DNA of 63,033 bases, filler included, from Stramenopiles sp. TOSAG23-6 (taxonomy: Eukaryota): NCBI GenBank assembly GCA_900128565.1. It is 12 parts of 12 records of this genome, joined end to end, with 100 filler letters (N's around TTAATTAATTAA, not from the genome) between each part and the next. Parts side by side here need not be neighbours in the genome. Positions count along the whole stretch, not along the records: positions 26,376 to 31,535 come from LT636963.1; 11 more parts are not named here. The stretch is one strand, 5' to 3'. The notes under the pieces were generated by a model that saw only the letters and a program-made list of their open reading frames with translations, ran no database searches and was not told where the DNA came from. This document shows positions 24,024 through 45,400 of this stretch, one piece after another; within the stretch, counting starts at the first letter, position 1, and each line of letters starts with the position of its first letter. The translations under genes were made by a program, and so were the position numbers.

Positions 24024-24439
24024 AAAACTACAAAAACACTGACAAATGAAATGAAAGCTCAAAAGTGGCACATGCAAAAAATTGCTCAATACCTTTATCG
24101 CCCACATACTGTAGTATAGTACCTAAAGCTAATGTGCCACTCCTATTTTTGCTATTCTATTCTCAAAGAGGAGCTCTTTTGAGCAAGGCAAAGAGAGGAC
24201 AAAGAGAGCGAGAGACAGGAGGAAGAGAGCAAATTCGTTTCTCAAAAATTTTGTTTCAATTTTGTTTTTTAGATTTCGTGTTTGTTCTTGTGATTCTGGG
24301 ATGTCATTATTTTGTGTCAGTTATCGCCGAGGAAGTTTCTTTGTTGTTACTTGTGTCATACATATACACTAACTAGTCCGGTCTTGAAAAAAAAATGGTT
24401 TGGAAAGTACAGAAAAAAAACAATTGAATTGCTCTTATA

Positions 24440-26185
24440 ATGGACAAAATTTTTGAAGGATTGTTGCGCTCTTCGCATGAGCCGAATGTTGTAGAACATC
24501 TTGTTGACCTTTTTCTGAGTCGTTGCACGTCGTCACAACTAATTGAACCGGTGCTCCTTAGTTCGGCAGTTGCTTGGTGTACTGAAAATGAAAGTAAGAG
24601 TAGTTGTGAATATGATGACGCTGCTGATGATAGTGATACCAGCAATGTAACCTCGGGTAAAAGGCCATCACCTACTCGTAATGCTGATGGTAATCAGGGT
24701 GTTCGACCATATGCACATATGCTCGGTAAGCGAGTGCTCCAGAAATCTGCAACAATTTCCCCTACTGAGTTCTTCATACATTTCGGAACTGATCAGTTGC
24801 GTACTCTGGTGCCTAAATCCATATGTCGGGGTAGTCGTACAATAGAAGAGGATGTTCCTCTTCGTTTGGAATGCTTGTTACTAATCCTTCGTCTAAAATC
24901 TTCGATAGTGAATAAACTATCAAACACCTCAGAGAATCAAACTGAGAAGATTGGTATAGGCACAAAGCCTGCACCAACTATTAATAATTTCAACATGGAA
25001 TGTCTTTCTGTTGCACCCATACTCTGGTCATTTGTGCGACATCGTTTAATAGATGATATATCCACAGGTTTCTCTTTGTGTCGAAAATCTCCGAAATTTC
25101 CTTACCATAAATGGAAATCAAAAGAAGTAATTGCAAAAATAACCTCAGAGTTCCCTCTCTGTCTAAAACTAGAACCCTCTGATACAGTGAACTATGAGTG
25201 TAGTGTACAACTTTCTTATATTGCAATAGACTGGGCTTGGTGTTGGGCTGGACGTTTGATCTCTCCAGTGATAGCAGAGGATTCTTTTGTATTGTTAGAT
25301 GAAAATGTCTCTAAAAAAGAGCAAAACCCTAACCCAAAACAAATTGGATCAGCATCAGCGTCTGCAACTTCAGGAGCTCTTACGTTTGCGAGTATGCTTC
25401 GAAAATGTGTCACAATAGATCCAAACAAAGAATATTGGTCTATATTCGAACATCTTTTTGAGGTAATAATTTTTGATTTCTTGCATAGCAAAGACAATGC
25501 AAGGAAATTCTGTGCAACTGTAGCTAGGGAAAGAGGTCGACTTATGATTCCTATTGCTAATGTTTTGAAGGGAATACATAATAAAGAAAATCAAAATACA
25601 AATAATTATCAAAAATTAATCAAGAAATTGCATATGATTCATGGAACTGATGTAGTAAATCAAGGGATCATGCATTTAGTATTGACACTAGAGCAGTGGC
25701 CAGGTATTAATGATATTCGTAGAGTTATGAATGATTGGTCTAGTAGTTTTCTGTCGTCGTTATGTACGTTTTCATCATGAATTTCAAATTTATTTATTTT
25801 TTTGTACGAAATTTCGTACCTAACAAAAAAAATCAAATTTTTGAAATATTTTTTCACAATATATGTCGCTTACAATATTTTAAACCCATCCAAAGTATAA
25901 TGAATAAATCAAGCTTTACGAAAGTAGGTACAGTATGGTATTTACTTCCGATGGAATGGTATGTATGTTTTATTTTTTTTCAAATTCCAATTTTTTTTCG
26001 TACGAAATTTTTTACCTAACAAATTTTTTTTTGAAATACTTTTCCAAAATTCATTCGTTTTGGTGTGAAAAAATGAAACAAATAAATTCATCATTAGTAC
26101 CACAATTTGGTATGAAATGTATGATCAATTCAGAGATGAATCTTCCTTCTTCTGTCTCTACACAACAGGAGGATGAATCCTCAAT
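24440..26185 (+). CDS. USP35/USP38-like deubiquitinase, N-terminal region; 3'-partial. Introns 25764-25864, 25963-26054, 26186-
   Basis: MDKIFEGLLRSSH resembles the USP38 N-terminus MDKILEGLVSSSH; LGKRVLQ..PTEF and QWP..DWSSSFLSSL also resemble USP38; catalytic domain not in the window. Confidence 0.6.
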
Positions 26186-26449
26186 GTATGTTTTATTTTT
26201 TTTAATTTCGAATTTATTTATTTTTTCGTACGAAATTTTGTACCTAACAAATTTAAGTTTTTTTTTTTGAAATATNNNNNNNNNNNNNNNNNNNNNNNNN
26301 NNNNNNNNNNNNNNNNNNNTTAATTAATTAANNNNNNNNNNNNNNNNNNNNNNNNNNNNNNNNNNNNNNNNNNNNTTGTAAAATTGTTAGGTACGAAATT
26401 TCGTACAAAAGAAAATGTAGATAAAAAATTGAAAAAAAATAAAACATAT

Positions 26450-28114
26450 CCTCCTCAATTTCTGAATTACTTATGATCAATCCAGAATCACTTTTATCTT
26501 TAAAATGTTCCATTTCAAACTCAGACACTTCCTTAGATACTGAAAGAGATGGTCGAATTAAGAAACGAACCAACATACCTGCAGCGTCACCTTTAAATGT
26601 ATCTTCAAATATATCAAAATAATGAGGATTCATCTGAAGTATGTATTGTGAAAAATATTTTTTTTTTTTTTACCGAAAATAAAAAAAAAATCGTTAGGTA
26701 CGAAATTTCATACGAAAAAAAAAAAAAAAAAATGAAAAACNNNNNNNNNNNNNNNNNNNNNNNNNNNNNNNTCTAGTGAACACTAAAAAAAAATTTGAAA
26801 TTCAAAAAAAAAAAAGTTTTTGTTAGGTACAAAATTTCGTACTAAAAAAAAACTAAATTCATGATGAAAAACATACAAACTCTTCACCAAAATCAACCAT
26901 TTGTATATACTCATTTTCTATTTTTTCATTAATATTATAACCAAAATCCACAGCATCTACCATACCAATATCTGCACCATTTGAAGCCATCTCAAGCAGC
27001 ACAGCTTGGAATATCCAGGGTAACCGTCGAAGTTCCCCATGCTCATTTTCAANNNNNNNNNNNNNNNNNNNNNNNNNNNNNNNNNNNNNNNNNNNNNNNN
27101 NNNNNNNNNNNNNNNNNNNNNNNNNNNNNNNNNNNNNNNNNNNNNNNNNNNNNNNNNNNNNNNNNNNNNNNNNNNNNNNNNNNNNNNNNNNNNNNNNNNN
27201 NNNNNNNNNNNNNNNNNNNNNNNNNNNNNNNNNNNNNNNNNNNNNNNNNNNNNNNNNNNNNNNNNNNNNNNNNNNNNNNNNNNNNNNNNNNNNNNNNNNN
27301 NATCTACAAAGATATATAATGTGAAAAATATGTTTATGTGTGGGATTCGTCAGGTACAGAATTTTCTTATTTAAAAAGAAAAACATCAAAAAAAAAGAAT
27401 TTCATGATGAAAATAGACATTTCAAAAAAAAAAAAATCTTAGGTACAAAATTTTGTATGAAAAAAAAAATTAAAAACTTAAATTCATTATGAAAACAGAC
27501 ACTGTCAATGAAATCATGAGTATGTGGAGAAGCATAATGCAGAAGAAGAATTCTTTTTGTTAAAATAGCGATTGCCATTGCGCTTACAATGCTAATAATT
27601 TGATTTCCTAATCCAACAAATGGCATGGGGTATGAAAAAGTATTTCAAAAAACAATTTTAATTTGTTAGGTACAAAATTTCGTATGAAAAAAATATTTAG
27701 ACAAAACATTGAAATGAAAACGTACATATTAAGCACTAAAATATTCATCGATTCCATTTTCAAATTACCTTGACTTAAGTCAAGTGAAAATTTATGATGG
27801 CGATCGAGATACGATTTCATCCTATTTTGTAAAGATATTTAAGGTTCAATTTTTTTGTTAGGTACACATTTTCGTATGAAAAAAAATCAAAAGTTCAAAT
27901 TTGAACACGGACATATTTTGCCAAGATGTTTCAGATTCTTTTCTCTCAGATGGAAATGCTTTTTGAGATGTATCAACAACAAGTTGCTGTAGAACTTCTG
28001 AACGTGTAGGTCTATTGATCAAAGTTGATTTATTTTTTAAACAATTGAGGGAAAAATTATTTTGAGATGAAACATTTGACGTTGTATTACCTACTTTATC
28101 TTGACAAGTATTAC
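26450..28114 (-). CDS. GT37/xyloglucan-fucosyltransferase-like glycosyltransferase fragments, intron-rich and gapped
   Basis: Spliced LVLNM|PFVGLGNQIISIVSAMAIAILTKRILLL (GLGN motif) and LQMNPHY..FLIRPS. Introns 27912-27822, 27725-27625, 27500-27312, 26876-26641, 26449-. Confidence 0.6.
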
Positions 28115-28241
28115 ATGTAGGAAAATATTTCAAAAATTTGATTTTATGTATTGTCAAGTACAGAATATCATACAAAATAAAATTGCCTATGAATATATAT
28201 ATTTATATAAATTCGAAATTCATAATGAAAACGTAGATGTC

Positions 28242-28273
<32 letters not shown>

Positions 28274-28326
28274 TGTACCAAAAAAAAAAAAAAAAAAAAA
28301 AAAACTGAAAAAAAAATAAAACATGC

Positions 28327-29469
28327 ATGTTCCCCAGCCATTTCACCATGGTCCGATGTGAATATTATAATCGTATCCTGATCTACACCAGCATCTGTTA
28401 AAGCGTTGAGTAATTGTACAATATGTCTATCAGATTCTACAAAACAATTCAGATAAAAATCTAGATTTCTCTGAAATTCATCAACCGTTTTCATTTTTCC
28501 AAATATAATATCAGTATCATGCATGTGATGACGTGCGCTCAAAGGTAGTTCGTATGCGTCTTTCATATCTGAATTATTACTCACATTATTTTTATAGAGA
28601 TTTGGCGTTTCATTCCATTTTTTTTTGAATGTTTTTTCGTCAGGAGGCGACATGAACGGAACCTTTCCATTAAATTTTTCCATTCTTCTACTTTTGCTTT
28701 GATCTACTCCAGAGTCGAAAAACATGATATCATGTGGATTAATAAAATTTACTGCAAGGAACCATGGCTTTGAGGTTTGGGATACTTTTTTTATTTTTTC
28801 CGCTGAATTTTCTGATATCGAGGTTTTTGATGAGAAATTCTCCAAAGGATGCTCTTCAACTTTCTTGGCATGCTCAAATATAAAATCTACAGCTTCTTGA
28901 GTAGTTATGGGATCCTGGTAAAATCCTTCATTACACGCACCCCAAAAATTACCCATTGAGTTCCACTCTCCAAAACCAAATTTTTCAAGAGATTTTGTGT
29001 GGTTCACACCAAAGTAATTTGGTTTTTTTTCTTTACGTCTTTGTACGTCACCATCTCCATAATTACCATTAATATCATAATTATCCTCTTGTTTAAAACG
29101 GCGAACATCAAGATCACTTGTTAAATGCCATTTACCCTTGTAAGCAGTCCGAAAGCCATTTTGATGAAGAATATGACCGACGGTTAAACCGCGACCTGAA
29201 CTATTATATAGAGGTAAATCCCTATCGTTACTAAATACACCCGTATTTTGAAAATGCTGCCCTGTATACATTACAGAACGACTCGGTGTACATGGTGCAG
29301 AGTTAATGAAAAAGTTATCAAAAGAAACACTTTGTCTCAGAAGTTTTGCACGTCCGGGTAATATAGTTTCCAGTTTCGAATAAAATCCAGATGGTAGATC
29401 TGTCCAACGTCGTTCTTGGTCCATTACTATAAGTAATATATTATATTGACCTTCTGGACGGTTACTCAT
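28327..29469 (-). CDS. Formylglycine-dependent sulfatase, bacterial-like; truncated at a family intron starting 28326 (GC donor)
   Basis: NILLIVMDQER, CTPSRSVMYTG, YKGKWHL, PWFLAVNFINPHDIM, DTIIIFTSDHGEMAGEH. Confidence 0.88.
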
Positions 29470-29886
29470 CTTACTAAATATATTTGTCTTTATGGAACTA
29501 TTTAATAATTACGTATTACTATCTAGATGAGTTTTATTCACTACGGAAGTGTATAGTATAGTTCAAGAAAAAGTAAAATATCCTTCAAAGTTACACAGAA
29601 ATACCGTACATTTCGTTCATACCAAAATTTATTACCTAAACCGACTCGAAATGCATAACGTAAAAACTGAAAAACATCAGATTCATCCAATTATACTACC
29701 GGTTTGTGTCTCACTATTATTGCACTATTATTTACCTGCTCTAGCTTCCCTTTGAACGATAAAGAGAATATACCATTTTTTGTTGCACATTTCCGCATAT
29801 TATCAAAATAGTAAAAATGAACAGATCCCTATAGATACCTCGCTACATTGATAGAAAATACTGTTTCACAAGCTCAAAAGAGATCA

Positions 29887-31430
29887 ATGCTTCGTTTTTT
29901 TGACACTGCGAGATTCGGAGTATCTATTGTAAGGACAACTCGAAGTAGATACTACCATCCTTTCAACAATGCTAATACTGTAAGCAGAAGAATTATATCA
30001 AAACGAAAACCAAATACAGTTACTCGACTGAATAGTTCATTTGACCCAATTGGCACACCAGTAGAAAGCTCGGCGTTTGACTTTACAAAGTTAGATTTTT
30101 CAGATACCCGTGTGGCGTATCAGTCCAAGTCGACAGCTGATATCATACGAGCATTAATTGTGTTTCGTATATGCACTATAACATGGTTAGTAAAGCATAG
30201 TGATCGACTCCTTGTACAAGCAAAGCGTGTACTCGGTGATAAAATTGTCGGTACATTCTTTCGGCCGACATTTTTCCGCCATTTTTGTGCTGGAGAAGAT
30301 GAAAGTGGTATTACTCAAACAGTGCAGCACCTGAATTCTTTTGGTGTTGGTGGAATACTGGATTACGCTGCAGAAGCAGATCTCAATAGTGATGATTCAA
30401 CGAAAAATGAAGTATCCATGAATGATGAAGCCAAAGGTATTCTAGATGTTATGCCGAATCTTCCATCATCAGCATCTGTTGCTCGAGTCTATGAGTATAC
30501 CAATGAAGTAGAGTGTGATTTAAATATGAAAATATTTGAGAAATGTATTAAATCTGTGCATAATGTTAGCCCCGAAGGTTTTGCAGCCATTAAAATTACA
30601 GCGTTGGGAAATCCGAAATTATTGGAACGAGTGAGCCAAACTCTTCTTGAGATTCGAAGTATGTTTTTTTTTTTTCAATTTCAATTTCGAATTTCGAATT
30701 TATTTTTTCGTACGAAATTTTGTACCTAACAAAGATTTTTTTTAAATTGAAATATTTTTCTAAAATTTCATGTATGTTTCGACGGTATGATCGTGATGGT
30801 GATGGAAAATTATCATTTCCTGAGTTTAAAGATGCCTTTCTTGAAGATTTTGATGTGAAAGATAATGACGTCATAAAATATTTTGAACATTTTTGTGGAA
30901 ATAGTGAGGATGACACTACAATCGATTACATTGAATGGACAGCCTCTTTAAAATTAGATGATTTATGGAGCCTAGTGAGGATGAGTAGAGAAAAAGGACC
31001 GTTGGCAGAAGTTGCTTGTACGTTTTCAAAATTGATTTTTTTTTGTATGAAATTTTTTTTCATAGAAAATTTTGTACCTAACGATTTTTGTGTTTACGGG
31101 AAAAAAAAAATCACAATACAGTAGATACCGAAGAAATGAAATTATTGGAAGAACTATATAAACGCACTGATCGTTTGTGCTCACTTGCGGCTGATATAGG
31201 AGTTCGCGTTATGATTGATGCAGAACAAACTTATTTTCAGCCTGCTATTGATAATGTATGTTTTATTTTTTTTAATTTCGAAATTTGTGTTTTCGTACGA
31301 AATTTTGTACCTAACAATTTTTTTAGTTTTTTTTTTTTGAAATATTTTTCTAAAATACATATTGTACTTGAAATGCAACGTAAGTATAATATGCCTGGTA
31401 AAAATCCTGTAAATGATCGAGCGGTTGTTT
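29887..31430 (+). CDS. PRODH: Mitochondrial proline dehydrogenase with an EF-hand insert; 3'-partial. Introns 30659-30771 (GT-AT), 31018-31121 (GT-AG), 31256-31360 (GT-AT), 31431-
   Basis: TFFRHFCAGED, GILDYAAE, FAAIKITALG, VRVMIDAEQTYFQPAIDN|IVLEMQRKYN. Confidence 0.92.
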
Positions 31431-31635
31431 GTACGTTTTCTTTTTTACTTTTTTAAATTTAGTTTATTTTTTTCATAGATAATTTCATTTAAAATGATTT
31501 TTTTTTTTCGAAAAAAAAAAAAAAAAAAATATTTCNNNNNNNNNNNNNNNNNNNNNNNNNNNNNNNNNNNNNNNNNNNNTTAATTAATTAANNNNNNNNN
31601 NNNNNNNNNNNNNNNNNNNNNNNNNNNNNNNNNNN

Positions 31636-33407
31636 ACAAATCACGAAATATCAAATAACTCAAATGATATCACAAATCACGAAATATCAATGATTAAAGT
31701 AGAAATATCAGAAGTAGAACAAATTGCAAATTCAATATTTCAATCAACGGAGTCGATATTATTATTTGTAAAAAGTTGTATACAAATGGTACAAAATATG
31801 AAAGTAAAAGAGAATATTTCCTTACATTGGATATATATTATGTACGTTTTTTTTTCATACGAAAATGTGTACCTAACAAAAACAAAGTTCAATGTTTCAA
31901 AAAAAAGAAAATTATAATTTTTATAATTTTTTTATAATTTTGTATCTAACAAAATGTATATAAATATATATATATTTCACAATAAATACCGTTTCTTTCT
32001 TTGAATATAGAAATATATACAATATGTAAAGAATGTATTGATAAAATAATCTTCGAATTTAAAGATACAAATAATTTGAATAAATTCAAAATTAGTTACT
32101 TATACATGATACAATGTATTTTAAGTGTATATACAAAAAATACAAAAAATACAAAAAATACTACAATTGAAAAAAATACAAAAAATACAAAACATACAAA
32201 AAATACTACAATGGACAAAAATACAAAAATGCAAATACACGAAATACTTGGAAATATTGAACACGTAGATATGATACATATATTAGCATCTCTACCCTAT
32301 TTGTTTTGTAGTATTGACACGAAAAAAAAAATCAAAATATCAAAATTTGGATTTTTTATATTTCAATATTCAAAACAAATTTTTTTAAACTCATTAAATC
32401 AATCAAAACTAAATTCTTGGCAAAGTTATTGTATACTGTATACAGTTATAAAAGAACAAAATACACCCAATGACTCTAACCCTAATCTTCAACAATATTT
32501 ACAGAATTCTATAAAAAAGTTTCAAACAACAGAAAATTTTAAAAAAAATTCTGAAAACAATTTTGAAAAATTATATGTCGCATTATTATTTCATGTATTA
32601 CAAAATTTCACAAACCAAATAGGCAATTCAAAAGTGATATATTTTAGTAATAACTTGACAAATGAAGATTATTGGACATTTTTATTGAATCACTTTGATC
32701 AATTATTATCAAAAAAAACAAAAACACAAGAAAACATTATTTCGTGTTTTAATGATTTTGTTGATTTTGATGAGTATGCCACCATACATCAATTCAAAAA
32801 TGATTGTGATTTATTATATACAATGATAGGATGGTCACATTTTATTGTAAACAAAGAAAATACACATAATGAAAAAAACAAAAAAAACAAAAAAGACGAT
32901 CAAATTCTTAAAAATCTTCATTGCATTTTCTCTCATGGCATTGAAAATTGTGTTAAACAACAGAAGCACGATGCAAGATTGTATATATTTCATGCACTGT
33001 TATATGCTATACAAGGTGATGTAGAGAATTCTTTCAGGACATTTCGTATTTTGTCCGAAGTGGAACAAACATGTTCAAAAGAAGACCAAATATTCTATAT
33101 TTCAAAAATTCATTTGTTTCGTGTGATTTCAATAATTGGTTTTTACTTTATTTCTCATAAACATCAATGGCATGAAATGATTCAACTTATATTTGATATA
33201 TACAAACAGAAAAAACAAAATAATATAAAAAAACAAGAAAATCAGATTGAAAAAGAAATGATACAAACTATACTATTGAAAATGACACGTGTCAAATCGC
33301 TTTCTCCGATTGAATTTTTTAATGTATTACCAAATGATGGAAATGTTTTTTTTTTCTTGCCTATCATTCAAAAAGCTCTACAAAGACAATATCATGAAAC
33401 TGAGTAA
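31636..33407 (+). CDS. HPS3-like (BLOC-2) C-terminal region, low-complexity; 5'-partial. Intron 31842-31987 (GT-AT)
   Basis: C-terminus LSPIEFFNVLPNDGNVFFFLPII resembles the HPS3 C-terminus (DFMNVLPEDGTATFFLPYL, from memory). Confidence 0.5.
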
Positions 33408-33659
33408 CAAAAGTATATCATTTAATAATAAATCTCAAACGATAAAAATGTATAGATTTCCCCAAAATAAAACACACAATTTTTTTTTCTTCATTTCTAC
33501 ATGGCTTTAGTCATTGCACCAACCCTAACCCTAGTAGTACTCTAATAATGTTGAAAAAAAATGATTGCACGTTGAACAATAACACACATTTTTAGTACAC
33601 ATAAAGCTATACACTAGACTTATCATATTTCACATACTCAAACAATACTCAAAAAATAC

Positions 33660-34115
33660 TTACACTGCAAGTATTGCTTCAGGAATTTCTTTATATGAAG
33701 TTTCTTCAGACATTTCGTCATTTTCATTCTCAACAACTGTGTGCAGTATAGGTGTCGCAAATTTCGTAGCTCCAATTCCGTTATAAGCTGACTTGAATCG
33801 ATATGATCGTAGTAACCAGAGTAATGCAAGGAAAAAACATACGTATGGATACATACGAGCACTTCCCTCCCAACTACACTCGCAACCTTTCGGGCATTTG
33901 GGTTGAAACACCGTTAACAAACAAAGTCCAAAGCCAAACTTTATTACTGCTGAGGATAAAAAGTATACTGAAAGAACATCCCAGTAGTGTGTTCTCCTTG
34001 CTGCGAATATGACTATCAAACAATTAATCAATGTAAATCCCAAAGCAGCATAGGAAACCATCATATAACGGTGAACATTATGGTCGAATTGTGCTTGACA
34101 ATCACTGTGTAACAT
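33660..34115 (-). CDS. Small membrane protein with ~3 TM helices and a CPKGCEC loop
   Basis: 151-aa ORF with three hydrophobic segments. Confidence 0.6.
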   Translation of the reverse strand: MLHSDCQAQFDHNVHRYMMVSYAALGFTLINCLIVIFAARRTHYWDVLSVYFLSSAVIKFGFGLCLLTVFQPKCPKGCECSWEGSARMYPYVCFFLALLWLLRSYRFKSAYNGIGATKFATPILHTVVENENDEMSEETSYKEIPEAILAV

Positions 34116-34911
34116 CTCTTCTTAATATTCACAGTTTATAATATAATTACTATTGAGAAGAATAGGCACAAAATAAAGCAACAGTTATCCGTTTCGAGTA
34201 TAAATAATGTAATATAGCAAGTATTGATTAACTAAAACAAATTAAATTTGATTTGTATTCACTTTTATACAGTCAACGATGTTTTATTTTTCTCTGGTAG
34301 TATTCTTCAATTAATTGCAAAATGGTGTGACAGCCACAGCAGGAAGAAGAGGAAGAAGAGTCAACACAAAAAACATTTTTAATGCAGTGTCAATATTTTC
34401 AAAATTTATATCAAATCAAATATCTAACAGATTTCGTGTTTTATCACAACTTTTAAAATTCAAATATTTTTGAAAATTTGAAAAAATCGGGGGAAAAACG
34501 ATGCGGTATCATGCGGTATTGAAATTGGATACATATTACGTATTACGTATGGATAAAACTTTGGATTTGAGCATTGAAAGTTCTTAATAATATCATCAAG
34601 TCTTCTTTGGTAAGTTCAATATACATACATGTTTCTGTCTTTATCCTTTCCCCTCTATAATTATTCGATAAGAGAAATGTAGTGAGTTGTGGTTGTAAAT
34701 CAAGTTTTCAAGTTTCCAATTGCTGCTTTGGTAATTTTCACGTTCGGGGACGTTTGTAGAAAGGAAGTGTATTTGATAAATTTTACTTAGACTTTGTCTT
34801 GTATAATACGACAATATAGAAAAGAAAATCGTTTATAAATTGACACTTTGTATAATAAGGGGGAAAGTAATTATGTGCAGGTGTATGTTTATGAAACAAC
34901 TGTTTGTCAAA

Positions 34912-35015
34912 CTCTACATACAATTCTATATTTATGAATGACCCTCTACGTGCAATTCTACATTTATGATTGACTCTCTACGTACAAATCTATATTTATG
35001 AATGATTCTCTACGT
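34912..35015. repeat. 32-bp intergenic tandem repeat, 3.25 copies
   Basis: CTCTACRTRCAAWTCTAYATTTATGAWTGAYY units. Confidence 0.85.
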
Positions 35016-35246
35016 TTCTTAGTGAAACGCCACGAGCAATAATTTTCGAATGACAAATTTGGCGCTCTTTTTGTGTTTTCTTTTTGGTTTTATTCTTTTC
35101 GTATTCCCTTTTTATTGCTCTCAAAAGTTAATAAAATAACTCACTAATTTTACTTTCATGAAATTCAATTTATATATACTTACTACAGGATTTATTGGAT
35201 AAAAAGAAAGTATAACCGAAACGAATTTTCTCCTTTCAAAAGAAAT

Positions 35247-36793
35247 ATGTATCTTTTTGGATTTCCTCTGAAAAAGACAAATGACAATGAAACAAAGGCA
35301 TCCGAAAGAGCAAACCCTATTGCTATAGATCCAAAAGATAAAGGACCGAAATCAAATGTAACGCTACCATTATCCCAAAATGCAAAATCACCGTCACATC
35401 ATCTGCCAGATCTGAGTAAAGCACATACTTTTAGACTATGGTCAACATTCAAGGATGTCATTGAGCCAACGAACGCCTTGCGCAAAATTGATGTGATAAT
35501 TGTATGTTTAATAATGGTGTTGTATGCTCAATTTTGGCCAGTTGGTATTATTTTTGTTAATTTGCTACACATCGAATTTGCTAGTGGAAACTTGGAATTC
35601 CAAGGTCCAGTACAAACGACGCCTCTCATTGCGTACATTTTTCTGTTTTTATTTGCAGTTGTTAGCTTACGAGCTCTCTTTGAACAGTGGTTGTATCAAT
35701 GTGCACAATTCTTTAAGAGAGTCATCAAGGCAATTATTTTAAATGAAAACGACGAGACTACGGAAGTTTTCATAACTGAAGACATTGACAAAACAGAATA
35801 CACATGTTTTTATCTATTTCCACAATGTGTACAGTCTGTTGTTGTAATTGTAACCTTGTTAATTTTTGTGTATTTTCGAAATTTGGTATTAATGGTATAT
35901 ATTTCGTGTCTGCTAATTACTCTGCTTATTCTTTCAATTCTATCAACAAAAAGTACAATGGAACATAATGAAGAACTTTTGAGGTTAGAGTCAGCTATGA
36001 ATGCAGCAAATTCAACAATGGATTGTGAAAACGAAACTATGGATGGTGAAAATTTAACTATGGATGGAGAACATGAAACTATCGATAGAGAAAATATACC
36101 ACCTGATGAGCAGTACTTTTTATCAATGGCACAGCAAATGCATTACTCCATATATGAATTTTTGATAAAAATAGTTCTAGGTGTATCCCTGCCTGGAGCA
36201 GTTGAAGTAAGTGCGTATGTAATTGCCCGTGATAGGATTGGTAACTCTGTGCTTGAAGATGTACTTTGTTTTGTTGCTTTTCTCTATAACGCAAATTCAT
36301 TTTTTACAGCATTGGATGGGATTACCAAGAATGCAAATAATATACGGCGGGTTCGAAAATTATATCAAAAAAATAAGGACAATGTGCAAAATATTCCAAA
36401 TGGTGATAAAACAAGTTATAAGAAACAAATTATTTACGCTTTTGTATTTATGATATTACTCGTTCCTTTGGTAGCTTTGGTATACTATATTTTGAGTCTT
36501 CATTTGTGTGATGAGAATGTCAAAGTTAAATGCTCGTATGAAAGTATTGATGAAAGTAAGATTGTAAATACTAGGTGTGATTCTATAACAGTTACTCAAA
36601 AGTTTAATATTGACAATACTCTATGCCAACTGGATTTAAGTCAATCAGAGATACTTGAAAAATGTAGAGAAAGCTGTAACGTAACAGTTGACACAAAAGT
36701 TATTGCAGCTGTTGAAAATACCATTGGTTTAAAACTACAAGAAACATCCTTTCACTATGATCATTCGCCATTATCAAGTCAACGGAGATTGAA
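35247..36793 (+). CDS. Multi-pass membrane protein (possible degenerate ABC-type TM bundle) with a Cys-containing extracellular region; 3'-partial
   Basis: Open 515-aa frame with ~7 hydrophobic segments and TMDxEN repeats. Confidence 0.55.
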
Positions 36794-36927
36794 NNNNNNN
36801 NNNNNNNNNNNNNNNNNNNNNNNNNNNNNNNNNNNNNTTAATTAATTAANNNNNNNNNNNNNNNNNNNNNNNNNNNNNNNNNNNNNNNNNNNNTTTCAAA
36901 TTATAAAACATATTTTCTTCAAANGCA

Positions 36928-37641
36928 TGCTCGATCGGAACGAATGAAACAAATCAATAAGGCAATAAAAGAGCAAAGAAAAGCCATGATTAGGGAGGAG
37001 AATATGTACGTCTTTATTGTGAATTTTTTATCTAAATGTTTTTTAAAAACATTTTGTACCTAACGAGTTTCGAATTTAATTTTTTTTCACAATACATCCG
37101 TCGTGATAAATGGAAAAATAATTTAACATTAGAAAGGGACATCACACCTGGTCCAGGAAAATATTCTTTGCCCGATCTTACTACACAAGTAGCAGGTGGG
37201 ACTTGGTCTCGAACCGCAGTAAAGAGTGAATTTGAAGAAATTGAATATCGAGGTAGAAATATTCCTGGTCCTGGCCATTATGGAATGTTAAAGTCATGTA
37301 TTGAACCAAAAGGGGGAATTATTGCTAGAAGATGTCCAGGTCAATTGGATATCATGTTAAAACGAGCAGCTGAGACACCAGGTCCTGGTCAGTATCAGCC
37401 AAGAGAGATTGAAAGTAATAANCCTCAAGCTTTTGCTAAATTTAAAACTCCAGGAATGTTAGATCAAGCCATTAGAAACTCAAGAGATGTCCCCGGNCCA
37501 GGAATGTACCAAACTTCGGATATGCCAACAGCAAAAGCAAAGGAAGTNTTACGAATGAAAGCAGCAACTAGACAAATAGTACAATCTGCTTTAAAGAAAA
37601 ATGGTAGGGGACGTCGGCGTCCTAGTACTGCCGCTTATTAG
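36928..37641 (+). CDS. SHIPPO/ODF3-like PGPG-repeat flagellar protein; 5'-partial. Intron 37006-37097 (GT-AT)
   Basis: TPGPGKY, IPGPGHY, TPGPGQY, VPxPGMY. Confidence 0.8.
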
Positions 37642-37777
37642 TAAATATAGTATTCTTGTTACATATAACTTTCTTTTTTATATGATATGATATGACATAA
37701 TAAAACACAGATAATAAAAATGAATCANAAAAAACGATTTTTTAAAAGTATTTTATTTTTGAGATGTAGAGAAATCT

Positions 37778-40711
37778 TCAAACTTGGACTTTAGGGTTAG
37801 TATCATCATTATTTACTTCTTTGGAAGGTGTTACCGCCGCTACCTTCTTTGCATCATTCAACATTTTTGCAATTCTCTCTTCTGATGTTAAGCGCGAGAT
37901 TTCTATCGTTTCAGGTTTCATTTTCCTTCGATATTGTAATCTTTTTTCAATCCGTTTTGGAATGCTATTTTCATCGATACAATGCTTCATATTGATTATA
38001 TTACCTCTGCGTTGTGCTGCTGAAAACAATCTTGACATATGCGCTTGCATCATTGTTATTCGTTGTTTATTTGCCTTATGAGAAGATCGAGCGCGAGTTC
38101 CAGGTCGCGAACCTTTTTTAGTGAATGAAGCTTGGTCAAGAGGAGACCACCCACGGAGAGTGATTTCTACATCCAATTTCGGCCACCTTTGTTCGAATTG
38201 AGGGAGAGGATCAAGCATATCTTTTGTTGGAAGAATTGCTAACGTCTGCTTCTTNGTGACAGCTATGCGCGTTTCAGACACGCGGCGTATTGGTTCTGTA
38301 ACTATGTTGTGCCACTCTTTATCAGCAGCATCTTGACCGCGTTGTTTAAATATACGATCATATCTTTGTTCTGCCGTTGAAACTTTCATTGCTGAAACTG
38401 CCATTAGTGCTGCTATTTTATTACCATGACCAGCTGTATAAGATGCTCGTACTGCATCTCTTTGTTTCGGTTGCATTTTNGTAGAATTCTTACTATATCT
38501 TTTCATAATTGGATCTATTTTAGCCATATAAGCATCAATTTCTTTATCACCTATAATATTTGTTTTTGGTCTCCAAATAATACCGTCTAGTTCATTTGCG
38601 AGTTTTTGTAGTGCTTCTTTCTTTTCTGCTTTTAATTTTAATTGTTCTTCGTTTTTTTCTGCATCTGNTATTCCCAAAGATTTTGACGCCTTTTGGTCCC
38701 ATGCTTCTTGTGCTGCATTAGCCAATTCGCTTAGTTTTAGTGTAGCTATACCCATTTTTAGTCCTTTTTTTCCTTGCGGTTGCATTAATCGGAATTCGAA
38801 AGTAATATTTTCAAGTCGAGATTTCAACTTATTACTATAGACAACAAAGGATTCATTCCAAAGAATGTTGTTATTGATATCTNTCAAATTAGTCATTGGA
38901 GATATCCTTGTTTTATGCTCGATTTTTTTGTGGCCTAATAATACTGTATGAATATACGGCGAACTAAATGGATTTGTTGTCTCTGTTTCTGGGTTTTGAT
39001 CATGACCATACAAATTTGACGCTGATCTGATTTTTATCCATAATTCAAATCCTTTTTCACTCGGTGTTGTCCCATCGAATAGTCGCTCACGGCTTAACCC
39101 TTCCCGGTGTTTCATTCGGTCATAGTATGACATTCCTCTTCGCTCAGCTTCAATTTTATATTTTGGTTTATCCTCAACTGACATCCTAAGACAGTTCTGT
39201 CGCGCACGCTTTCGGTTTAACTTTAATATATGTAAGTGTCCCCTCCTGTATTCATCTACTTTTCTAAGACGTAACTTTTTAGCTCTTACTAATGCAAATG
39301 CTTGGTCTTCTTGGAAACGCAAGTCANACACTGTTTTTTCCATTTTCTCATGTTTTTCTTTTTCCATGTTTAACTCTGCTTCCAACTTTTTATACCGTTT
39401 AAAAATTTTATCTTTCAAATGAACTTTTTTATCCAAGTGTACATTTTCAGACTTAAGTTCTTCNAGTATATGTTCGAGTATTCCAATGTCATCATGGTAG
39501 TCTATCTTCTTTTGTCTTAGTTCCATCTCTTCCTGATTTAATTTCTTAATTTCTTCTGCAGTTGCTAGATATCCTTCTTGTTGCGTATTAAATCGTAATT
39601 TACTTTTCAACATTCTTTTTTCAGCTATTGTTGTGTTTTTCTCTTCTTTAATTCTTGTTTGAACAGATAAATCAAGTTTCTCCTTGAGTCTCTTCAACTC
39701 AGTATCCAAGGCNAAAGAGTCAGCAAGCATTTTTTGTTTNGTTTTTTCATCCTCGAGACCTACTTTCTCGGCTCGCCGTACAGTAGATGAAAATGGCACT
39801 TTTTTTCCATTTTCATTTGTGTAAATATATGAATCCAATGTTTGCTGCAATACTTTCCTAAATAGTTCTTGACTATTTTTTTCATTCGGTGATAAGTATT
39901 GTGAAAAAATATTTTTTTTAGTAAAAAAATCGTTAGGTACAACATTTCGTATGAAAACAAAATTTGAAATGGTTAAAAAAAANTCAATTTTGAAAACGTA
40001 CAAACAGTTTTCTATATAATAACTTAAAAAGTCGAAACATGCTAGAGTTCGTGCTATAGCTTCGTTCTCGCTCGACAAATCATTTTCATATGTTTTGCAG
40101 TATTCAATGGTGTCTCCGAGTGAAGTTGTCTCTGATAATAAAGACGATTTCAAAGAACATTTGACTATGCCTTCTTTTTTTCTTCGTTCTGAACGTAAAG
40201 TTTTAGTACCAATATANGGAAAGTCNTTATAATTATTTTCTAAAACATCTGAAGAAATATTTAGATTTTGTGAATGAGGTTCCTTTAAAGGTATCTTTAA
40301 AGGTATCTTTAAAGGTATCTTTAAATCTTGAAACCTTGATTTCAAAAATGTGTGAAATGTTTTTAATAAATCTTCATCTGGTGGAAGATACTGCCATACA
40401 GGTACTTCATCTTCTCTTGGACGCTGATTATTTACNGCATTTGATGTATTCGAAGGAAGTGAACGATTCAAAAATGATTTCCCCCATTCCAAACGTTTTT
40501 CTAGTGTATTTAAAACAGGTTCTCGAAGTTTTGGCTTCACTGGAAGTGAATGTCCAAGAGCTTGGCGAACTACAAAAGCAGCTGGAGCTGAATTAGTAGA
40601 AGTATTGTCTGTTTTTTTGCGAGATGCACTTCTACGAGCAGCAGATTTTGTAGCGTCTGAATCGATCAGATTTCCTGATGATTCTGTGCGTATACTTGGT
40701 AGGCGAAGCAT
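37778..40711 (-). CDS. Coiled-coil and C2-like domain protein. In-frame family intron 40001-39894 (GT-TT)
   Basis: 980-aa ORF; ELWIKIRSASNL..SSPYI..ILWNESF is C2-like; the F-rich stretch YVFKI..RNVVPN..FSQY is a translated intron. Confidence 0.65.
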   Translation of the reverse strand: MLRLPSIRTESSGNLIDSDATKSAARRSASRKKTDNTSTNSAPAAFVVRQALGHSLPVKPKLREPVLNTLEKRLEWGKSFLNRSLPSNTSNXVNNQRPREDEVPVWQYLPPDEDLLKTFHTFLKSRFQDLKIPLKIPLKIPLKEPHSQNLNISSDVLENNYXDFXYIGTKTLRSERRKKEGIVKCSLKSSLLSETTSLGDTIEYCKTYENDLSSENEAIARTLACFDFLSYYIENCLYVFKIXFFLTISNFVFIRNVVPNDFFTKKNIFSQYLSPNEKNSQELFRKVLQQTLDSYIYTNENGKKVPFSSTVRRAEKVGLEDEKXKQKMLADSXALDTELKRLKEKLDLSVQTRIKEEKNTTIAEKRMLKSKLRFNTQQEGYLATAEEIKKLNQEEMELRQKKIDYHDDIGILEHIXEELKSENVHLDKKVHLKDKIFKRYKKLEAELNMEKEKHEKMEKTVXDLRFQEDQAFALVRAKKLRLRKVDEYRRGHLHILKLNRKRARQNCLRMSVEDKPKYKIEAERRGMSYYDRMKHREGLSRERLFDGTTPSEKGFELWIKIRSASNLYGHDQNPETETTNPFSSPYIHTVLLGHKKIEHKTRISPMTNLXDINNNILWNESFVVYSNKLKSRLENITFEFRLMQPQGKKGLKMGIATLKLSELANAAQEAWDQKASKSLGIXDAEKNEEQLKLKAEKKEALQKLANELDGIIWRPKTNIIGDKEIDAYMAKIDPIMKRYSKNSXKMQPKQRDAVRASYTAGHGNKIAALMAVSAMKVSTAEQRYDRIFKQRGQDAADKEWHNIVTEPIRRVSETRIAVXKKQTLAILPTKDMLDPLPQFEQRWPKLDVEITLRGWSPLDQASFTKKGSRPGTRARSSHKANKQRITMMQAHMSRLFSAAQRRGNIINMKHCIDENSIPKRIEKRLQYRRKMKPETIEISRLTSEERIAKMLNDAKKVAAVTPSKEVNNDDTNPKVQV

Positions 40712-41003
40712 TTTACTCAATGAACTATTTCTCCTGGACCCATTTTTAGTTTAAAAGCTTTATAGTTGTATAAGTAACTACCTCACAGAAGTAGTTGTTA
40801 TAAACGATATATAAGTGTAACTGTGATCAATACCAGGCCAGGGTCCGTTTTTTAGAGAGCGAGTTTTTTTGAATCGAACAAAAGTCGAAGGTGTATCCTT
40901 TGTATCCGCTTACTCTCTTCGGGATCTTTTGAGAGGAACGGTACAAAGAAGCTTCTAATTGTTGATAAAGATTGGATTCCAAAAGAGCCATATCTTGCCA
41001 AGT

Positions 41004-42044
41004 ATGGAAAAAATACATGTAAAAATGCCTAAAATGCCTCTGGTCAAGAAGAATCCTCATAGCNATCTTCTACGCTCAAGCCTTTTTCTCGCAATTCTTG
41101 GAGTCTTTGCNGTCACTTTGACTTTTCACTCATTCTCTCCGAGTACGGCCGATAGCTCTTCAGCTGGTCTTCGTCGGCTTGAATCCACTACAGAACTTAC
41201 TTCGGGTGTTACTCTCACTACGGAAGTTACTTCGGATGTTGCCGCTTCAGTCGTAAGGCAGACTGACTCAGACTTTGCATGTCCTTCGGGGTCATCGGTC
41301 GCTCTCGATGTTACACTCACTTCAACGTCGACCGTTTCACAGAAAAAATTGCAGAATTGTTCCTCTATAATAAGCCTGACAATAACATCAAGCACACTTA
41401 CCAAAATTGACAAGAAAGCGTTTAAAAATTGCTCGAATTTGGAAAGCGTTGATTTATCTGGATGCACTTCNCTTAAAAAGATTAAAAAAAAGGCATTTAA
41501 AGGTTGCGGTAAGCTTAGCGACTTTCAATTCCCTGGATCTCTTACAGGAGTATCAAAGTATGCTTTTGACGATACTTGTTTTGAAGGCGAGGACGACACA
41601 GCTAAATTAAATGACGCCGTATTTGTTGATTGCCAAGAATACGTTGCGACTGTGACTCCGGCACCAACACCTGCACCAACTGCAGCGCCAACACCTGCAC
41701 CAACTGCAGCGCCAACACCAGCACCAACTGCAGCGCCAACTGCAGCACCAACATCAATAACTTGCGACAAGGGCGAGTATGCAGAAAATGGTGAGTGTAA
41801 TGAGTGTGGTGCTGGTAAGTACTCATCTTCATCTGGTGCAAGCAAATGCACAGATTGTCCAGCGGGAGCGTACAGCGACGAAGGTGCAAGTGAGTGTGAT
41901 CTTTGTCCGGCAGGAACGGCAAACATCTCGACTGGTGGCCATGCAAGTGATTGTGAAGAATGTGCTATAGGAAAATACAGTAGTTCAGCTGGAGCTTCTG
42001 TCTGTACTGATTGTTCTACTGTGACAACAACAGGCGCTACTTCC
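41004..42044 (+). CDS. Surface protein: signal anchor, BspA-like LRR (LRR_5), TPAPT mucin repeats and GCC2/TNFR-like Cys repeats; 3'-partial
   Basis: LTKIDKKAFKNCSNLESVDLS; TPAPTPAPTAAPT; CTDCPAGAYSDEGASECDLCPAG. Confidence 0.82.
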
Positions 42045-42144
42045 NNNNNNNNNNNNNNNNNNNNNNNNNNNNNNNNNNNNNNNNNNNNTTAATTAATTAA
42101 NNNNNNNNNNNNNNNNNNNNNNNNNNNNNNNNNNNNNNNNNNNN

Positions 42145-42318
42145 TTACTACAAGGTATTGAAGCACCATCAATCGTACTACCTAATGGTGATGCATTTAT
42201 TTGTGAATTAGGGAAATTACCCAAACCAATTGTTTTACAAGAGAATCAAAATTGTGAAAGTATTCTTGTTAAAAATGTAAGTGTAGGCTGGCAACATTCA
42301 TGTATCATTGCGAATTAA
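42145..42318 (+). CDS. RCC1-repeat protein, C-terminal fragment
   Basis: Open frame ending PKPI..VKNVSVGWQHSCIIAN*. Confidence 0.55.
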   Translation, partial: LLQGIEAPSIVLPNGDAFICELGKLPKPIVLQENQNCESILVKNVSVGWQHSCIIAN

Positions 42319-42415
42319 TTGTTAAATATATTTATTTATGAAATATTAAGTAAAAAATCTTACTTACATTGAACTTTCATTGATTGAATACTCCTCAACT
42401 TCACCCTTCGCTGTA

Positions 42416-45400
42416 CTAAGATCCATTTTCACTTCGTTTGCGTAATCGTTTCTTTAGTAGACCAATTTCTTCATCGGCCTTTTTCATTGATGCGTCTGGA
42501 TTTGAGCCTCTTTCCCAAGTTTTTTTAACAATACCGTCAATTTCTCCCAAGAACTGCTCATGTCGTAACTGAGATGATCCACTCAGTTTTTCAAGATCCT
42601 CGTGTAATGTACGCACAGATTCTTCCAATCGTCCACATACTCCATTGCCCTTTCTATCATATATCAAACTGAGATGTTTGTGATTAATCGCAGCGGCGCG
42701 TTTTAAACCACTTAAAATAGATGATGAATCCGAGTCGTCAAAATTCCTACGTTTTTTTTTCGATTTTGAATTCGCTTTTTCGGCGTCTTCAACCAATAAA
42801 GTCTTTGCTCGTTGAATAGTCTTTAATCGTTGAATACTTTCTTCAGCATTTGTATTCGAATTAGTTTGTTGAATAATACCCGTCGAATTATTTTCTCCGT
42901 CTATCCCTGAAAGAGCTAACTGTGCTGTCAATTGTGCAATTTTATTTGGAAACTCCTCAGCAGCTGCGGTCACACCATCTTGCCACGCTTCCTGAATAGT
43001 TATCTTTGCAATCGCTTGTAATGGTCCAACAGTAGGACCATTACTATCAAGTGCTCCACATATTGCTTTACTCGAAGCGGTATGAAACGAATTGTGTGTC
43101 GCTTTTTTAGCACTGCTATTAATATCGGTACCTGGTGTACCAAAATCTGTCCACTGATTTCGCACAATACTTCGCATACTCTTTGTTATTTGACTTTGAG
43201 ATGATTCCATTTCTTGAACAATGGCTTTTCTAAGAACTTCATCTAGACATTTATGAAGAGATACATCAATTGTATCAATCAATGGACGACCCATCACCTC
43301 AACGACAGCTCTATGTACTGCCTTTTCTGCAGGACCTCCGATATTTAATGTGACATCAACTGCTTTAAGCATTTCATTGCCAATTGTTTTTTGAAGTTTA
43401 CGTTGTACAGATGTCTCTAATGCCGCAGATACCGTCTCTTCCACAGTTGTTTCTAATGAACCTTTCAGTGCAGATTGAAGAGATTTGTCTATGGCTGTGC
43501 TCATAGATCCCAGTACAATATGTGACATTCTTGCAGAGACTTGTGCAGTCATGCGTTTAGTTCCAGCACCAGCTAATGCGTCTTCTGCACCTCCTTTGGC
43601 TGCTTCTTTTACCGCATTTTCAAGATGCTTTTCCACTACTCGCGATACAATTGCTAATGTTGGGGCCGTAATGTCAACACTAGATTTGCTCGACATTGCA
43701 CCATCTACAGCGGTAGTCATTGCCAAATTTAGTCTTTCGCCAAATGTATTGCTCCTTTTTAGATCCAATGCATCAGCAATCGCATTTCCAGCACATGTGC
43801 GCAAAATTTTCTCAACTGAGCCTTTCAATGATTTTTCCATTATATCTTTGACAGTTGTTTCTATAGTATTATGCAATGTTTCCTCCACTAGATGTTTTAC
43901 TGTCAGGGACAATGTATCTTGCATAGTTGCATCTACTGCACTCTCCATGGTTGTTGCCACAGCTTCTTGCACAGACTTTTCAAGCTTACTTCGCACTGCA
44001 ACATCCATAGCATTTTTCATTGTCTCAGTAACAGCCTCCGAAAGTGTATTATTGACTAGATTGTTCAATGTACTACCCATACTGTGTTTTAATGTGGAAA
44101 CCATTGTTGTTCGAAGTGTCTGCAATGCTTCTCTTTGAACAACTTCCTGGGAATATTCTTTCGTAGAATCATCCAATGCAGTTTCAAAACCTCGTTGAAC
44201 TGACATTTGTAAACCCGAGTCAATACCATCACGAAGAGCTTGTTTCATCGATGCACTAAATACGACACGCAGTTCATCGTCAAGACTACCATTTGTCACT
44301 TCTTCGTCAAATGCATTCTGCAACGACGAGCTAAGAGCACGTTGTACCGTTCCATCCAAAGCTTTTTCGATTCCACTTGAAATACTTTCGCGGAATTGAT
44401 TGCCAAAGGACATTACTGCTGCAGTATCATTATAAGTGTTCCGTGAAATGGCTGCTTCAACTAAAGACTGTACAGTGGATGCTGTCGCAACTTTATCGAT
44501 AGCAGCTGCTGCCATATCTACTGCTTGTTTCTGCCCAATTTGAGCAATTGTGTCCGCCACTAGCGAACTCATCGATTCACATGTTAATTTAGTTATTGTC
44601 GATTCCATACCCTCAGATCTCAAAACTTCTTTTGCTGCATATGCTGCAGTAGTCTCAATATTACCAACACTACTTTCGAGTGCTCGAGACAATTCATCCA
44701 ATCTACCCAACACAGATTTCAAATCAATGTTTTCTGCTTTACTAGTCATATTATTAGACTTCACTTTATGGTCTTGATCTATTCGTATAGATGTTGGAGT
44801 ACTACTTGAAGTATGTTCAATTTGTTTATTAGCAGCTGTTGACAAAGCCGTTAGTCTCTTGTGCAAGATACCAAGTCCATATTCTAATTTACCAGTTAAT
44901 ACCATTAATTCTTGCTTTTTCTTTGGATTTGTTTTCATTCGAGAGCCAGCGGTTCGTTCAAGTTCTTCAATTGCAACACGCATACTCGAAATTTCCTTTG
45001 TATAATCTCCCGGCTTCGCACCTACTTCAACAATCACTCTATTACTAACTTTTCCGCCAGATGGATTTAAAACTTTAGGTGTTTTTAGCGTTGTAACTTT
45101 TGTTTTTGGAATTTTTATGTTTCCTACGTGTTTTACAAGTTTGTGATGATTATCTAAAATTGACAAAGATATTTGTTGTGTTTTATTCCTCATATCTTTT
45201 AATAACTGCTCATTTCCTTTATCAANNNNNNNNNNNNNNNNNNNNNNNNNNNNNNNNNNNNNNNNNNNNNNNNNNNNNNNNNNNNNNNNNTGGGCATATT
45301 ATTTGAAGTATTATAAGGTAAATTCATAAGGGTCTTTTTTGTTTTTTCCTCATCAGGAATAAGATTTGAATAATCTATATCAACTTGCCGTTCTTGTATT

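Follow-up and report, generated by a model that had tools for sequence, protein, structure and literature searches.

The stretch of DNA analyzed here, which we call the window, comprises 63 kb of Stramenopiles sp. TOSAG23-6 and consists of separate contigs of about 5 kb each, with spacers between them. One of these contigs, at positions 26376-31535, carries a gene encoding a proline dehydrogenase with an EF-hand, and this gene is interrupted by an intron of 113 nucleotides (nt), hereafter the target intron, that starts with GT and ends with AT. The target intron and two further introns of the same gene belong to a family of short, similar introns found in different genes of the window. The features of the gene that are relevant to this family are given below; a slash marks an exon/intron border, and alternative cut positions are expressed as offsets from the GT...AT register, which is taken as offset 0.

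29821-30658, plus strand: upstream exon of the proline dehydrogenase gene
30659-30771, plus strand: target intron, 113 nt, GT...AT, skipped by RNA contigs and entered by DNA contigs from both sides
30659-30666, plus strand: 5' splice site GTATGTTT, first copy of an 8-nt direct repeat
30722-30730, plus strand: candidate branch site GTACCTAAC, with its putative branch A (30729) at 42 nt from the 3' end
30769-30771, plus strand: 3' end CAT (YAT acceptor)
30772-30779, plus strand: second copy of GTATGTTT, exonic, coding for (S)MF
30772-31017, plus strand: next exon, encoding the EF-hand (EF-hand_1, E = 8.5e-08), present in RNA contigs
31018-31121, plus strand: AG-ending family copy, GT...AG, no flanking repeat, offset 0 fixed by homology
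31256-31360, plus strand: family copy AT/GT...ACAT/AT, 105 nt

Around the target intron the sequence reads ...gagattcgaa/GTATGTTTTT...GTACCTAAC...TTTCAT/gtatgtttcgacgg, with an exon ending in AA, an intron starting with GTAT and ending with CAT, and the palindrome TTTCGTACGAAA preceding the candidate branch site. No reading frame is open across the intron when it is retained, and upon its removal the joined product LLEIR-S-MFRRYDRDGDG is collinear with homologs (P0002, P0008 and P0011), the segment LLEIR-S-MFRRYD aligning ungapped with LVEIRNFFDRLD and LVEIRALFHRMD. Likewise, the junction of the AG-ending copy at 31018-31121 (...PLAEVA/LDTEEM...) is collinear with homologs, which display A-L-D at this point, and the joined product at 31256-31360 (...QPAIDN/IVLEMQ...) is collinear with P0008 and P0011. 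A protein-database search with exon 2 gave no match, and a search with exon 1 retrieved only a mis-spliced gene model and distant homologs. The former, P0001, is the public gene model of a near-identical sequence; it runs on into intron sequence (...LLEIRSMFFFFQFQFRISNLFFRTKF...) and lacks the EF-hand loop; against 29821-31535 of the window, the 105-nt intron at 31256-31360 is translated in frame, and spurious GT-AG introns are placed within exon 1. The loss of the EF-hand loop from P0001 is due to a predictor that looked for GT-AG; similar annotation errors are probable in gene sets of this lineage, and protein sets obtained with GT-AG-only predictors would share them. The best named protein match, with exon 1, is a EukProt entry bearing a MAST-3-type label (90% identical), and the runs containing the target sequence are seawater metagenomes and metatranscriptomes. 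On the basis of this protein match and these seawater runs, the host is provisionally treated as a MAST-3-like marine stramenopile. A diplonemid was considered first, given the noncanonical introns published for that group, and was rejected on account of the MAST-3-type label of this match and of intron features unlike those described in diplonemids.

RNA and DNA contigs, and not raw reads, were aligned to the window contig at 26376-31535; the other copies of the family that are informative for the register lie outside it, in 1-10461 and at about 51 kb. Two poly(A) metatranscriptome contigs cross the target site: X3 record 12 (175 nt) matches 30563-30658 and 30772-30850, and X5 record 19 (370 nt) matches 30475-30658 and 30772-30954, the two segments being adjacent in each record. 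Both contigs join 30658 to 30772 without extra letters and match the exon end AA, so that the mRNA reads ...ATT CGA AGT ATG TTT CGA...; the only difference near the junction is A>G at 30639, a change that the DNA run has as well. Of the DNA metagenome contigs, X2 record 6 covers 30155-30679 and extends into the target intron, and X2 record 7 begins at 30767. Among the matches listed, the joined form is found only in RNA contigs, and the DNA contigs retain both intron borders. At the target copy, exactly 113 nt that are present in DNA (a metagenome) are thus removed from poly(A) RNA (one sample). At the third family intron of this gene, whose donor is at 31256, the match of X3 record 13 stops two bases short, at 31253, and 40 of its letters have no place among the matches listed, which is compatible with splicing at 31256.

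The initial annotation of this DNA had assigned the register GT...AT, rather than AT...AC, to the intron at 30659, and had proposed that RNA across the junction would tell the two apart. The RNA contigs give CGA AGT ATG and not CGA TGT ATG, which bears out that assignment and excludes a cut two bases upstream, of the AT...AC type, at the target copy. Since the intron is flanked by the 8-nt repeat GTATGTTT, nine cut positions (offsets 0 to +8) yield the same mRNA, and the corresponding end pairs are GT-AT, TA-TG, AT-GT, TG-TA, GT-AT, TT-TG, TT-GT, TT-TT and TT-TT, respectively. None of these is GT-AG or AT-AC, and therefore the target intron is non-canonical whichever cut is used. For the sister copy that ends in AG (31018-31121), a cut at offset 0 reproduces the A-L-D of the homologs, and one at offset +1 would introduce a TGA stop codon; consequently, offset 0 (GT...AT or GT...AG) is the only single register that fits both introns. 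In the AT(G)-flanked majority of the family, AT-AC and GT-AT cuts give the same mRNA, as had been pointed out from the start, and offsets -2 to +1 are equivalent. AT lies upstream in 21/31 copies. By parsimony, we infer one register for all copies, AT-flanked copies included, and the GC-donor copy at 4188-4282 together with the pattern of conservation would point to offset 0 too. Support for GT...AT as the register is direct at the target copy; for the family it comes from parsimony.

The extent of the family was established with an nhmmer profile built from 14 clean copies, which gave 56 matches at E <= 1e-3 in the 63 kb, in different genes. From the alignment, 31 complete copies were curated by hand, further copies with one end only being left out, and these 31 copies (88-113 nt, median 99) are the basis of the counts given here. 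Their terminal pairs are GT-AT (22 copies), GT-AG (4), AT-AT (2), GC-AT (1), GT-TT (1) and GA-AT (1), and GT-AT copies constitute the dominant intron class of the window. At the 3' end, AT is found in 26/31, AG in 4/31 and TT in 1/31, so that the terminal AG of U2-type introns is confined to a minority; three additional copies with only the 3' end all display AT. The 5' end conforms to a U2-type 5' splice site with the consensus GTAYGTTTT (G in 29, T in 29, A in 28, Y in 31, G in 30, T in 31, T in 29, T in 30 and T in 27 copies). A branch-like motif, CTAA[CT], which agrees with YTRAY, lies 31-47 nt before the 3' end in 30/31 copies and is the putative branch site. The last positions of the intron are also conserved, with A at -2 in 30/31, T or G at -1 in 27/31 and 4/31, respectively, and C or T at -3 in 23/31 and 7/31. 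On the exon side, the upstream exon ends in AT in 21/31 copies and otherwise in 10/31, with A at exon position -2 in 26/31 and T at -1 in 25/31; with the addition of the copies of which the window contains just the 5' end (9/9), T at exon -1 is found in 34/40 donors. The first base of the downstream exon is G in 20/31. The motif GTAYGTTT occurs 46 times in the window compared with 5.85 expected, a number reached in 0/100 shuffles, and GTAYYTAAY occurs 44 times. The summed depth of the DNA run amounts to about 23,000-43,000 in bins that include the introns at 30659-30771 and 31256-31360, versus about 5 on unique exon bins, a contrast that fits a very high-copy repeat, although such depths are not copy numbers.

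Removal at the family boundaries gives an open joined frame, over 90 nt on each side, in 28/31 copies; two of the three failures abut runs of N and the third is the copy at 51829-51934. Of 29 copies tested with the intron left in place, only 3 keep an open frame. No AG is found within 25 nt of the 3' boundary in 8/25 non-AG copies tested. The copies outside the proline dehydrogenase gene that are of particular interest for the register or for the terminal dinucleotides are listed below.

239-334, minus strand: informative copy CT/GT...ATAT/G
3966-4060, minus strand: informative copy TA/GT...ACAT/G
4188-4282, minus strand: informative copy with a GC donor, CT/GCATGT...ACAT/G
7473-7571, plus strand: informative copy AG/GT...ATAT/G
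8066-8156, plus strand: AG-ending copy
12228-12315, minus strand: AG-ending copy
15537-15625, plus strand: copy with A at +1, AA/ATATGT...ACAT
27822-27912, minus strand: AG-ending copy GTCCGT...ATAG
39894-40001, minus strand: copy TT/GTACGT...ACTT/A, with 3' TT and a TT flanking repeat
51096-51199, minus strand: informative copy AA/GT...ACAT/G
51829-51934, minus strand: copy AA/GTACAT...ACAT/T, no open joined frame found, not a demonstrated coding intron

The flanks that the initial annotation had reported for the copies at 30659, 7473, 334, 4060, 51199 and 51934 were all recovered, each with GTAY at the start and a terminal YAT, and its remark that AG-ending copies carry AG exactly where the others have AT also held, the AG occupying the same alignment column in the four copies. 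Each of the four copies that end in AG carries C at +4 or +3 (GTACGT or GTCCGT), and AT is the ending of all 12 GTATGT copies, numbers that are too small for a test. The copies at 3966-4060 (GT donor) and 4188-4282 (GC donor) lie in the same gene, 222 nt apart, and are 97% identical over 95 nt; a duplication or insertion that took place very recently is the likely origin of the pair. At 7473, the 19 homologs compared place exactly one residue between a conserved G and a conserved T at the junction; no Pfam family was found in the surrounding gene.

Two arrangements that depart from the common pattern were also observed. On the minus strand at 596-848, two family copies lie in tandem, each starting with A at +1 (ATACGT) and with a 20-nt repeat, ATATACGTTTTCATTTTTCA, common to both; CACAG is the end of the second. 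No exon-intron model gave a convincing frame for 596-848, which may be one compound intron. At about 49690-49745 and at 49900-49984, on the minus strand, two GTACGTTT...AG introns carry the central TTTCGTACGAAATTTTGTACCTAA module in the opposite orientation, and both end in a normal AG after a run of T. This suggests that both orientations are possible for the core and that the AT acceptor is tied to the sense one.

The distribution of the family is reminiscent of introners, since many similar introns are found at non-homologous positions and the target copy is absent from the same site in relatives. In fact, among 14 related metagenome proline dehydrogenase loci (37-59% identical), none has an intron at the 30659 site and none carries GTACCTAAC, which makes the target intron a recent, lineage-specific gain; several of these loci have ordinary GTAAGT...AG introns elsewhere. 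In the relatives without the intron, the exon codons at the insertion site are already patterned xTx TTT, and the 8-nt match between exon and intron start is therefore in part ancestral coding sequence. A flanking repeat of at least 2 nt, centred on (C)AT/G(T), is present in 23/31 copies, and the ends GTAT(G)TTTT and AAAATAC are inverted over about 4-9 nt in one sub-family only. The family looks like a transposon-type introner, and mobility is what these features would imply.

Based on these observations, we consider it likely that the target is a genuine intron of the proline dehydrogenase gene, and that it represents an abundant introner-like family of introns of about 100 nt with GT...AT ends, and an AG minority, removed by a spliceosome of the major type. 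In the mechanism that we propose, family members would be excised from pre-mRNA at the boundaries /GTAYGT...YAT/, with AG as a minority variant at the same position. The U2-type (major) spliceosome would recognize the yeast-like donor GUAYGU, the conserved CUAAC, located 31-47 nt from the 3' end, would provide the branch A, and the acceptor would be whichever YAU or YAG comes first downstream of the conserved CA(C/A)AAUA block. A GTATGT donor combined with a TACTAAC-like motif is the textbook U2-type pattern of yeast. The usual T at -1 of the exon and the flanking AT(G) repeat would lie outside the intron, as a footprint of the insertion site reflecting either target duplication or preference. 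In a more specific version of this hypothesis, which we regard as evenly balanced between true and false, a single mobile introner filled the genes and the major spliceosome routinely carries out step 2 at AU, on about 85% of its substrates, with AG tolerated at the same position. If so, co-evolved changes in 3' splice-site recognition would be expected (U2AF small subunit, step-2 factors, pairing of the first to the last nucleotide), and a change in U1 opposite exon position -1 may also be implied by the T found there in most donors.

Several points weigh against this interpretation. A 3' terminal U is not normally accepted by the step-2 chemistry of the major spliceosome, which involves G1-G(-1) pairing, and the 8-nt direct repeat at the target junction is also the classic signature of template switching by reverse transcriptase. 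X3 and X5 represent one sample, and the joined form is carried by two contigs of low depth (3.2 and 5.2) rather than by raw reads; the target is the only informative copy covered by the RNA alignment, and the RNA-library contig X7 record 27 extends unspliced into the intron at 31018. Homology prefers offset 0 weakly both at 30659, where the choice is S or C versus N, A or T in homologs, and at 7473, where it is G or C and the 19 homologs display V (11), I (3), E (2), G (1), L (1), T (1) and C (0). The register of AT-flanked copies follows from parsimony, cuts at -2, -1, 0 and +1 giving the same mRNA. In addition, PMC1557818 presents the U12 system as the one documented to tolerate GT-AT.

Accordingly, the first alternative to be weighed keeps the GT...AT register and attributes removal to a diverged minor (U12-type) spliceosome, with small nuclear RNAs (snRNAs) that co-evolved with the element, as described for Physarum. 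We regard it as unlikely, though deserving of serious attention. The donor is conserved to +9, and GTATGTTTT matches the consensus of the U12 GT subtype, GTATCCTTT, at 7/9 positions, which is the best resemblance found. Nevertheless, +5 is G in 30/31 copies and +6 is T in 31/31, instead of CC, and +4 is C in 14/31. The exact U12 donor RTATCCTT, which had been noted as lacking, is indeed found at 0/31 family 5' ends, and its 5 occurrences in the window compare with 3.64 expected, 28/100 shuffles reaching 5. A U12 branch site lies 10-26 nt from the 3' end. A conserved 3' block, TTCCAAAAT or TTCACAAT, is located 6-12 nt from the 3' end of the family introns, where such a site would sit, but a branch of the U12 type (TCCTTAAC near the 3' end, with no polypyrimidine tract) was not found, and the only strong branch-like motif is the conserved (T)ACCTAAC 31-47 nt upstream, beyond the U12 distance. 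Together with the GTATGT donor, this motif reproduces the yeast U2-type pattern mentioned above. An Rfam search of the window gave no match of any kind, snRNAs included, and Pfam found no transposase or splicing factor in 25 long frames of the window. Blastocystis, also a stramenopile, is fairly closely related to MAST-3. It has been reported to contain minor introns in the hundreds and the full set of four minor snRNAs (PMC10639083), and U12-type splicing is documented to accept AT-AN as well as GT-AT introns (PMC1557818). For Physarum, bioRxiv 10.1101/2020.10.12.336362 gives GT-AT as 17% of non-canonical U12 introns and proposes a transposon origin of the U12 introns, with inverted ends and a TA flank.

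A second alternative places the cut of the AT-flanked majority two bases further upstream, giving AT...AC introns (ATGTAYGT...YAC), with GT...AT used only in copies without an upstream AT. In the 21/31 copies with AT upstream both registers give an identical mRNA, C at -3 in 23/31 copies places AC before the final AT, and the element ends GTAT...ATAC form a short inverted repeat. However, the -2 cut is excluded by RNA at 30659, and the 10/31 copies without an upstream AT keep GTAY and a terminal AT, AG or TT. Moreover, with T at -3 in 7/31 copies a -2 register would end in AT or TA instead of AC, the AG variants are found at offset 0 and not at -2, and the GC donor of 4188-4282 makes sense at offset 0 only. 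Two registers within one family are also less parsimonious, and we judge this alternative very unlikely.

Still less credible is removal without a spliceosome, either as a nonconventional intron of the euglenozoan or Amoebophrya type, through pairing of its ends, or by excision from DNA like the internal eliminated sequences of ciliates. The non-canonical ends and the short flanking repeat would agree with it, and GUAU...AUAC can pair, but folding is weak (median z -0.62), the ends are paired in 6/31 minimum-energy folds, and the T/C change at +4 takes place without compensation at the 3' end. Variable ends with extended pairing are thus not what the family displays, and its donor and branch-like motifs are strongly conserved, unlike those of the euglenozoan and Amoebophrya systems; the target intron is kept in DNA metagenome contigs and missing from poly(A) RNA, which is not the behavior of a ciliate eliminated sequence. 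Finally, the possibility that the 30658/30772 junction is an artefact, generated by template switching of reverse transcriptase or by assembly collapse across the repeat GTATGTTT, is judged barely plausible in spite of the perfect 8-nt direct repeats around the junction and the single sample behind it, given that removal restores a frame collinear with homologs and no frame is open across the retained intron, that 0/14 relatives have sequence at the target site, and that 27 other copies, mostly with 0-5 nt of flanking repeat, also need exact removal for an open frame.

The preferred reading, a GT...AT introner family processed by a major-type spliceosome, may be compared with systems already described. 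Introners of Micromonas and Aureococcus, and those of Amoebophrya (PMC7789003), are alike in being near-identical short introns at unrelated gene positions, with direct repeats overlapping the exon/intron borders, no coding capacity and lineage-specific gain. According to PMC7789003, Amoebophrya introners display direct repeats of 3-5 nt and inverted repeats, and Aureococcus introners constant direct and terminal inverted repeats with canonical splice motifs. The ends differ, being uniformly GT-AT here (22/31), canonical GT-AG in Aureococcus and Micromonas, and scattered dinucleotides in Amoebophrya. The present family also differs in its strong donor and branch-like motifs and in an inverted repeat of only about 4-9 nt that forms no stable hairpin, whereas hairpins are described in Amoebophrya. 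In Fritillaria borealis, 95% of introns are non-GT/AG, and changes in U2AF and in U1/U6 have been invoked for the non-canonical 3' and 5' ends, respectively (PMC13326754). In contrast, the 5' end of the present family is canonical (GT in 27/31) and only the 3' end is changed, to one dinucleotide, in a stramenopile-like host.

The U12 introns of Physarum polycephalum resemble the family in the mass gain of one intron type. The Physarum study (bioRxiv 10.1101/2020.10.12.336362) proposes a transposon with inverted termini and a 2-nt flank, in which splicing restores the frame, and mentions that the public annotation had dropped non-GY-AG introns. Physarum shows that a U12 system can expand and change along with a transposon-like intron. 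Its donor is [G/A]TATC[C/T]TTT and its branch motif is 10-12 nt away from the 3' end, in contrast to GTAYGTTTT and a CTAAC at 31-47 nt, and GT-AT is a small minority in Physarum as opposed to the majority in this family. Among animal GT-AT introns, there are documented examples of the U2 type (DGCR2, conserved in human and mouse) as well as of the U12 type, and they amount to a handful per genome (7 of the U12 type across four species; PMC1557818), versus the dominant class in the window. Hemistasiid diplonemids and euglenids are likewise marine protists in which introns other than GT-AG predominate, at about 97% in two species; as described in PMC12621601, these introns have no conserved ends, GC-rich borders, extensive pairing of the ends and a branch motif in 2-7%. 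In the family described here, by contrast, the ends are conserved and do not pair stably, and CTAAC is near-universal. In none of the compared systems does the dominant intron class pair a single, uniform non-canonical acceptor with conserved signals at the donor and the branch. No description of a GT-AT intron family in a MAST-3-type lineage was found in the full-text literature, supplements and subscription papers being outside the search; in papers on this lineage, the main text of PMC5778133 contains 'intron' twice and 'splice' 0 times, and that of PMC12614181 contains 'intron' 0 times.

The terminal AG is among the most conserved signals of eukaryotic gene expression. If the interpretation favored here is true, a free-living marine protist with mostly AT-ending introns and textbook donor and branch signals would represent a natural experiment on the choice of the 3' splice site, and would bear on how far an invading mobile intron can retune the spliceosome. 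It would also be a cleaner case, with one position changed, as compared with the many end pairs of Fritillaria, Amoebophrya, hemistasiids and Euglena.

As to the window as a whole, it is AT-rich eukaryotic DNA with a G+C content of about 20-40% per 2 kb, and it encodes ordinary eukaryotic proteins, namely, besides the proline dehydrogenase with EF-hand, a formin FH2, a Pumilio protein, a sulfatase and a leucine-rich repeat (LRR) protein, as well as MSP, SAP, SHIPPO and WASH-CCDC53 domains. No tRNAs were found in the window. Spacers of the form N44-TTAATTAATTAA-N44 are located at 5189-5288, 10462-10561, 15735-15834 and onward, every 5.2 kb or so, their spacing decreasing from 5273 to 5245. This steadily falling spacing indicates that the window strings together separate contigs in order of length, and no inference is drawn across a spacer. 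At 10562-12084, a perfect and very AT-rich 761-nt inverted repeat (arms 10562-11322 and 11324-12084) surrounds a run of N; it looks like a fold-back chimera from whole-genome amplification rather than biology. Short interstitial repeats of the TTAGGG type, with two to three units, are present at 51328-51342 and 51712-51727, in a stretch that is very AT-rich and dense in intron copies. On the plus strand at 57892-62840, two very long frames (635 and 1017 aa) contain cysteine-rich repeats of about 45 residues (C..DCP..E.C..), for which the sole Pfam match is a weak one to DUF7107, and their product is probably a large secreted or surface repeat protein.

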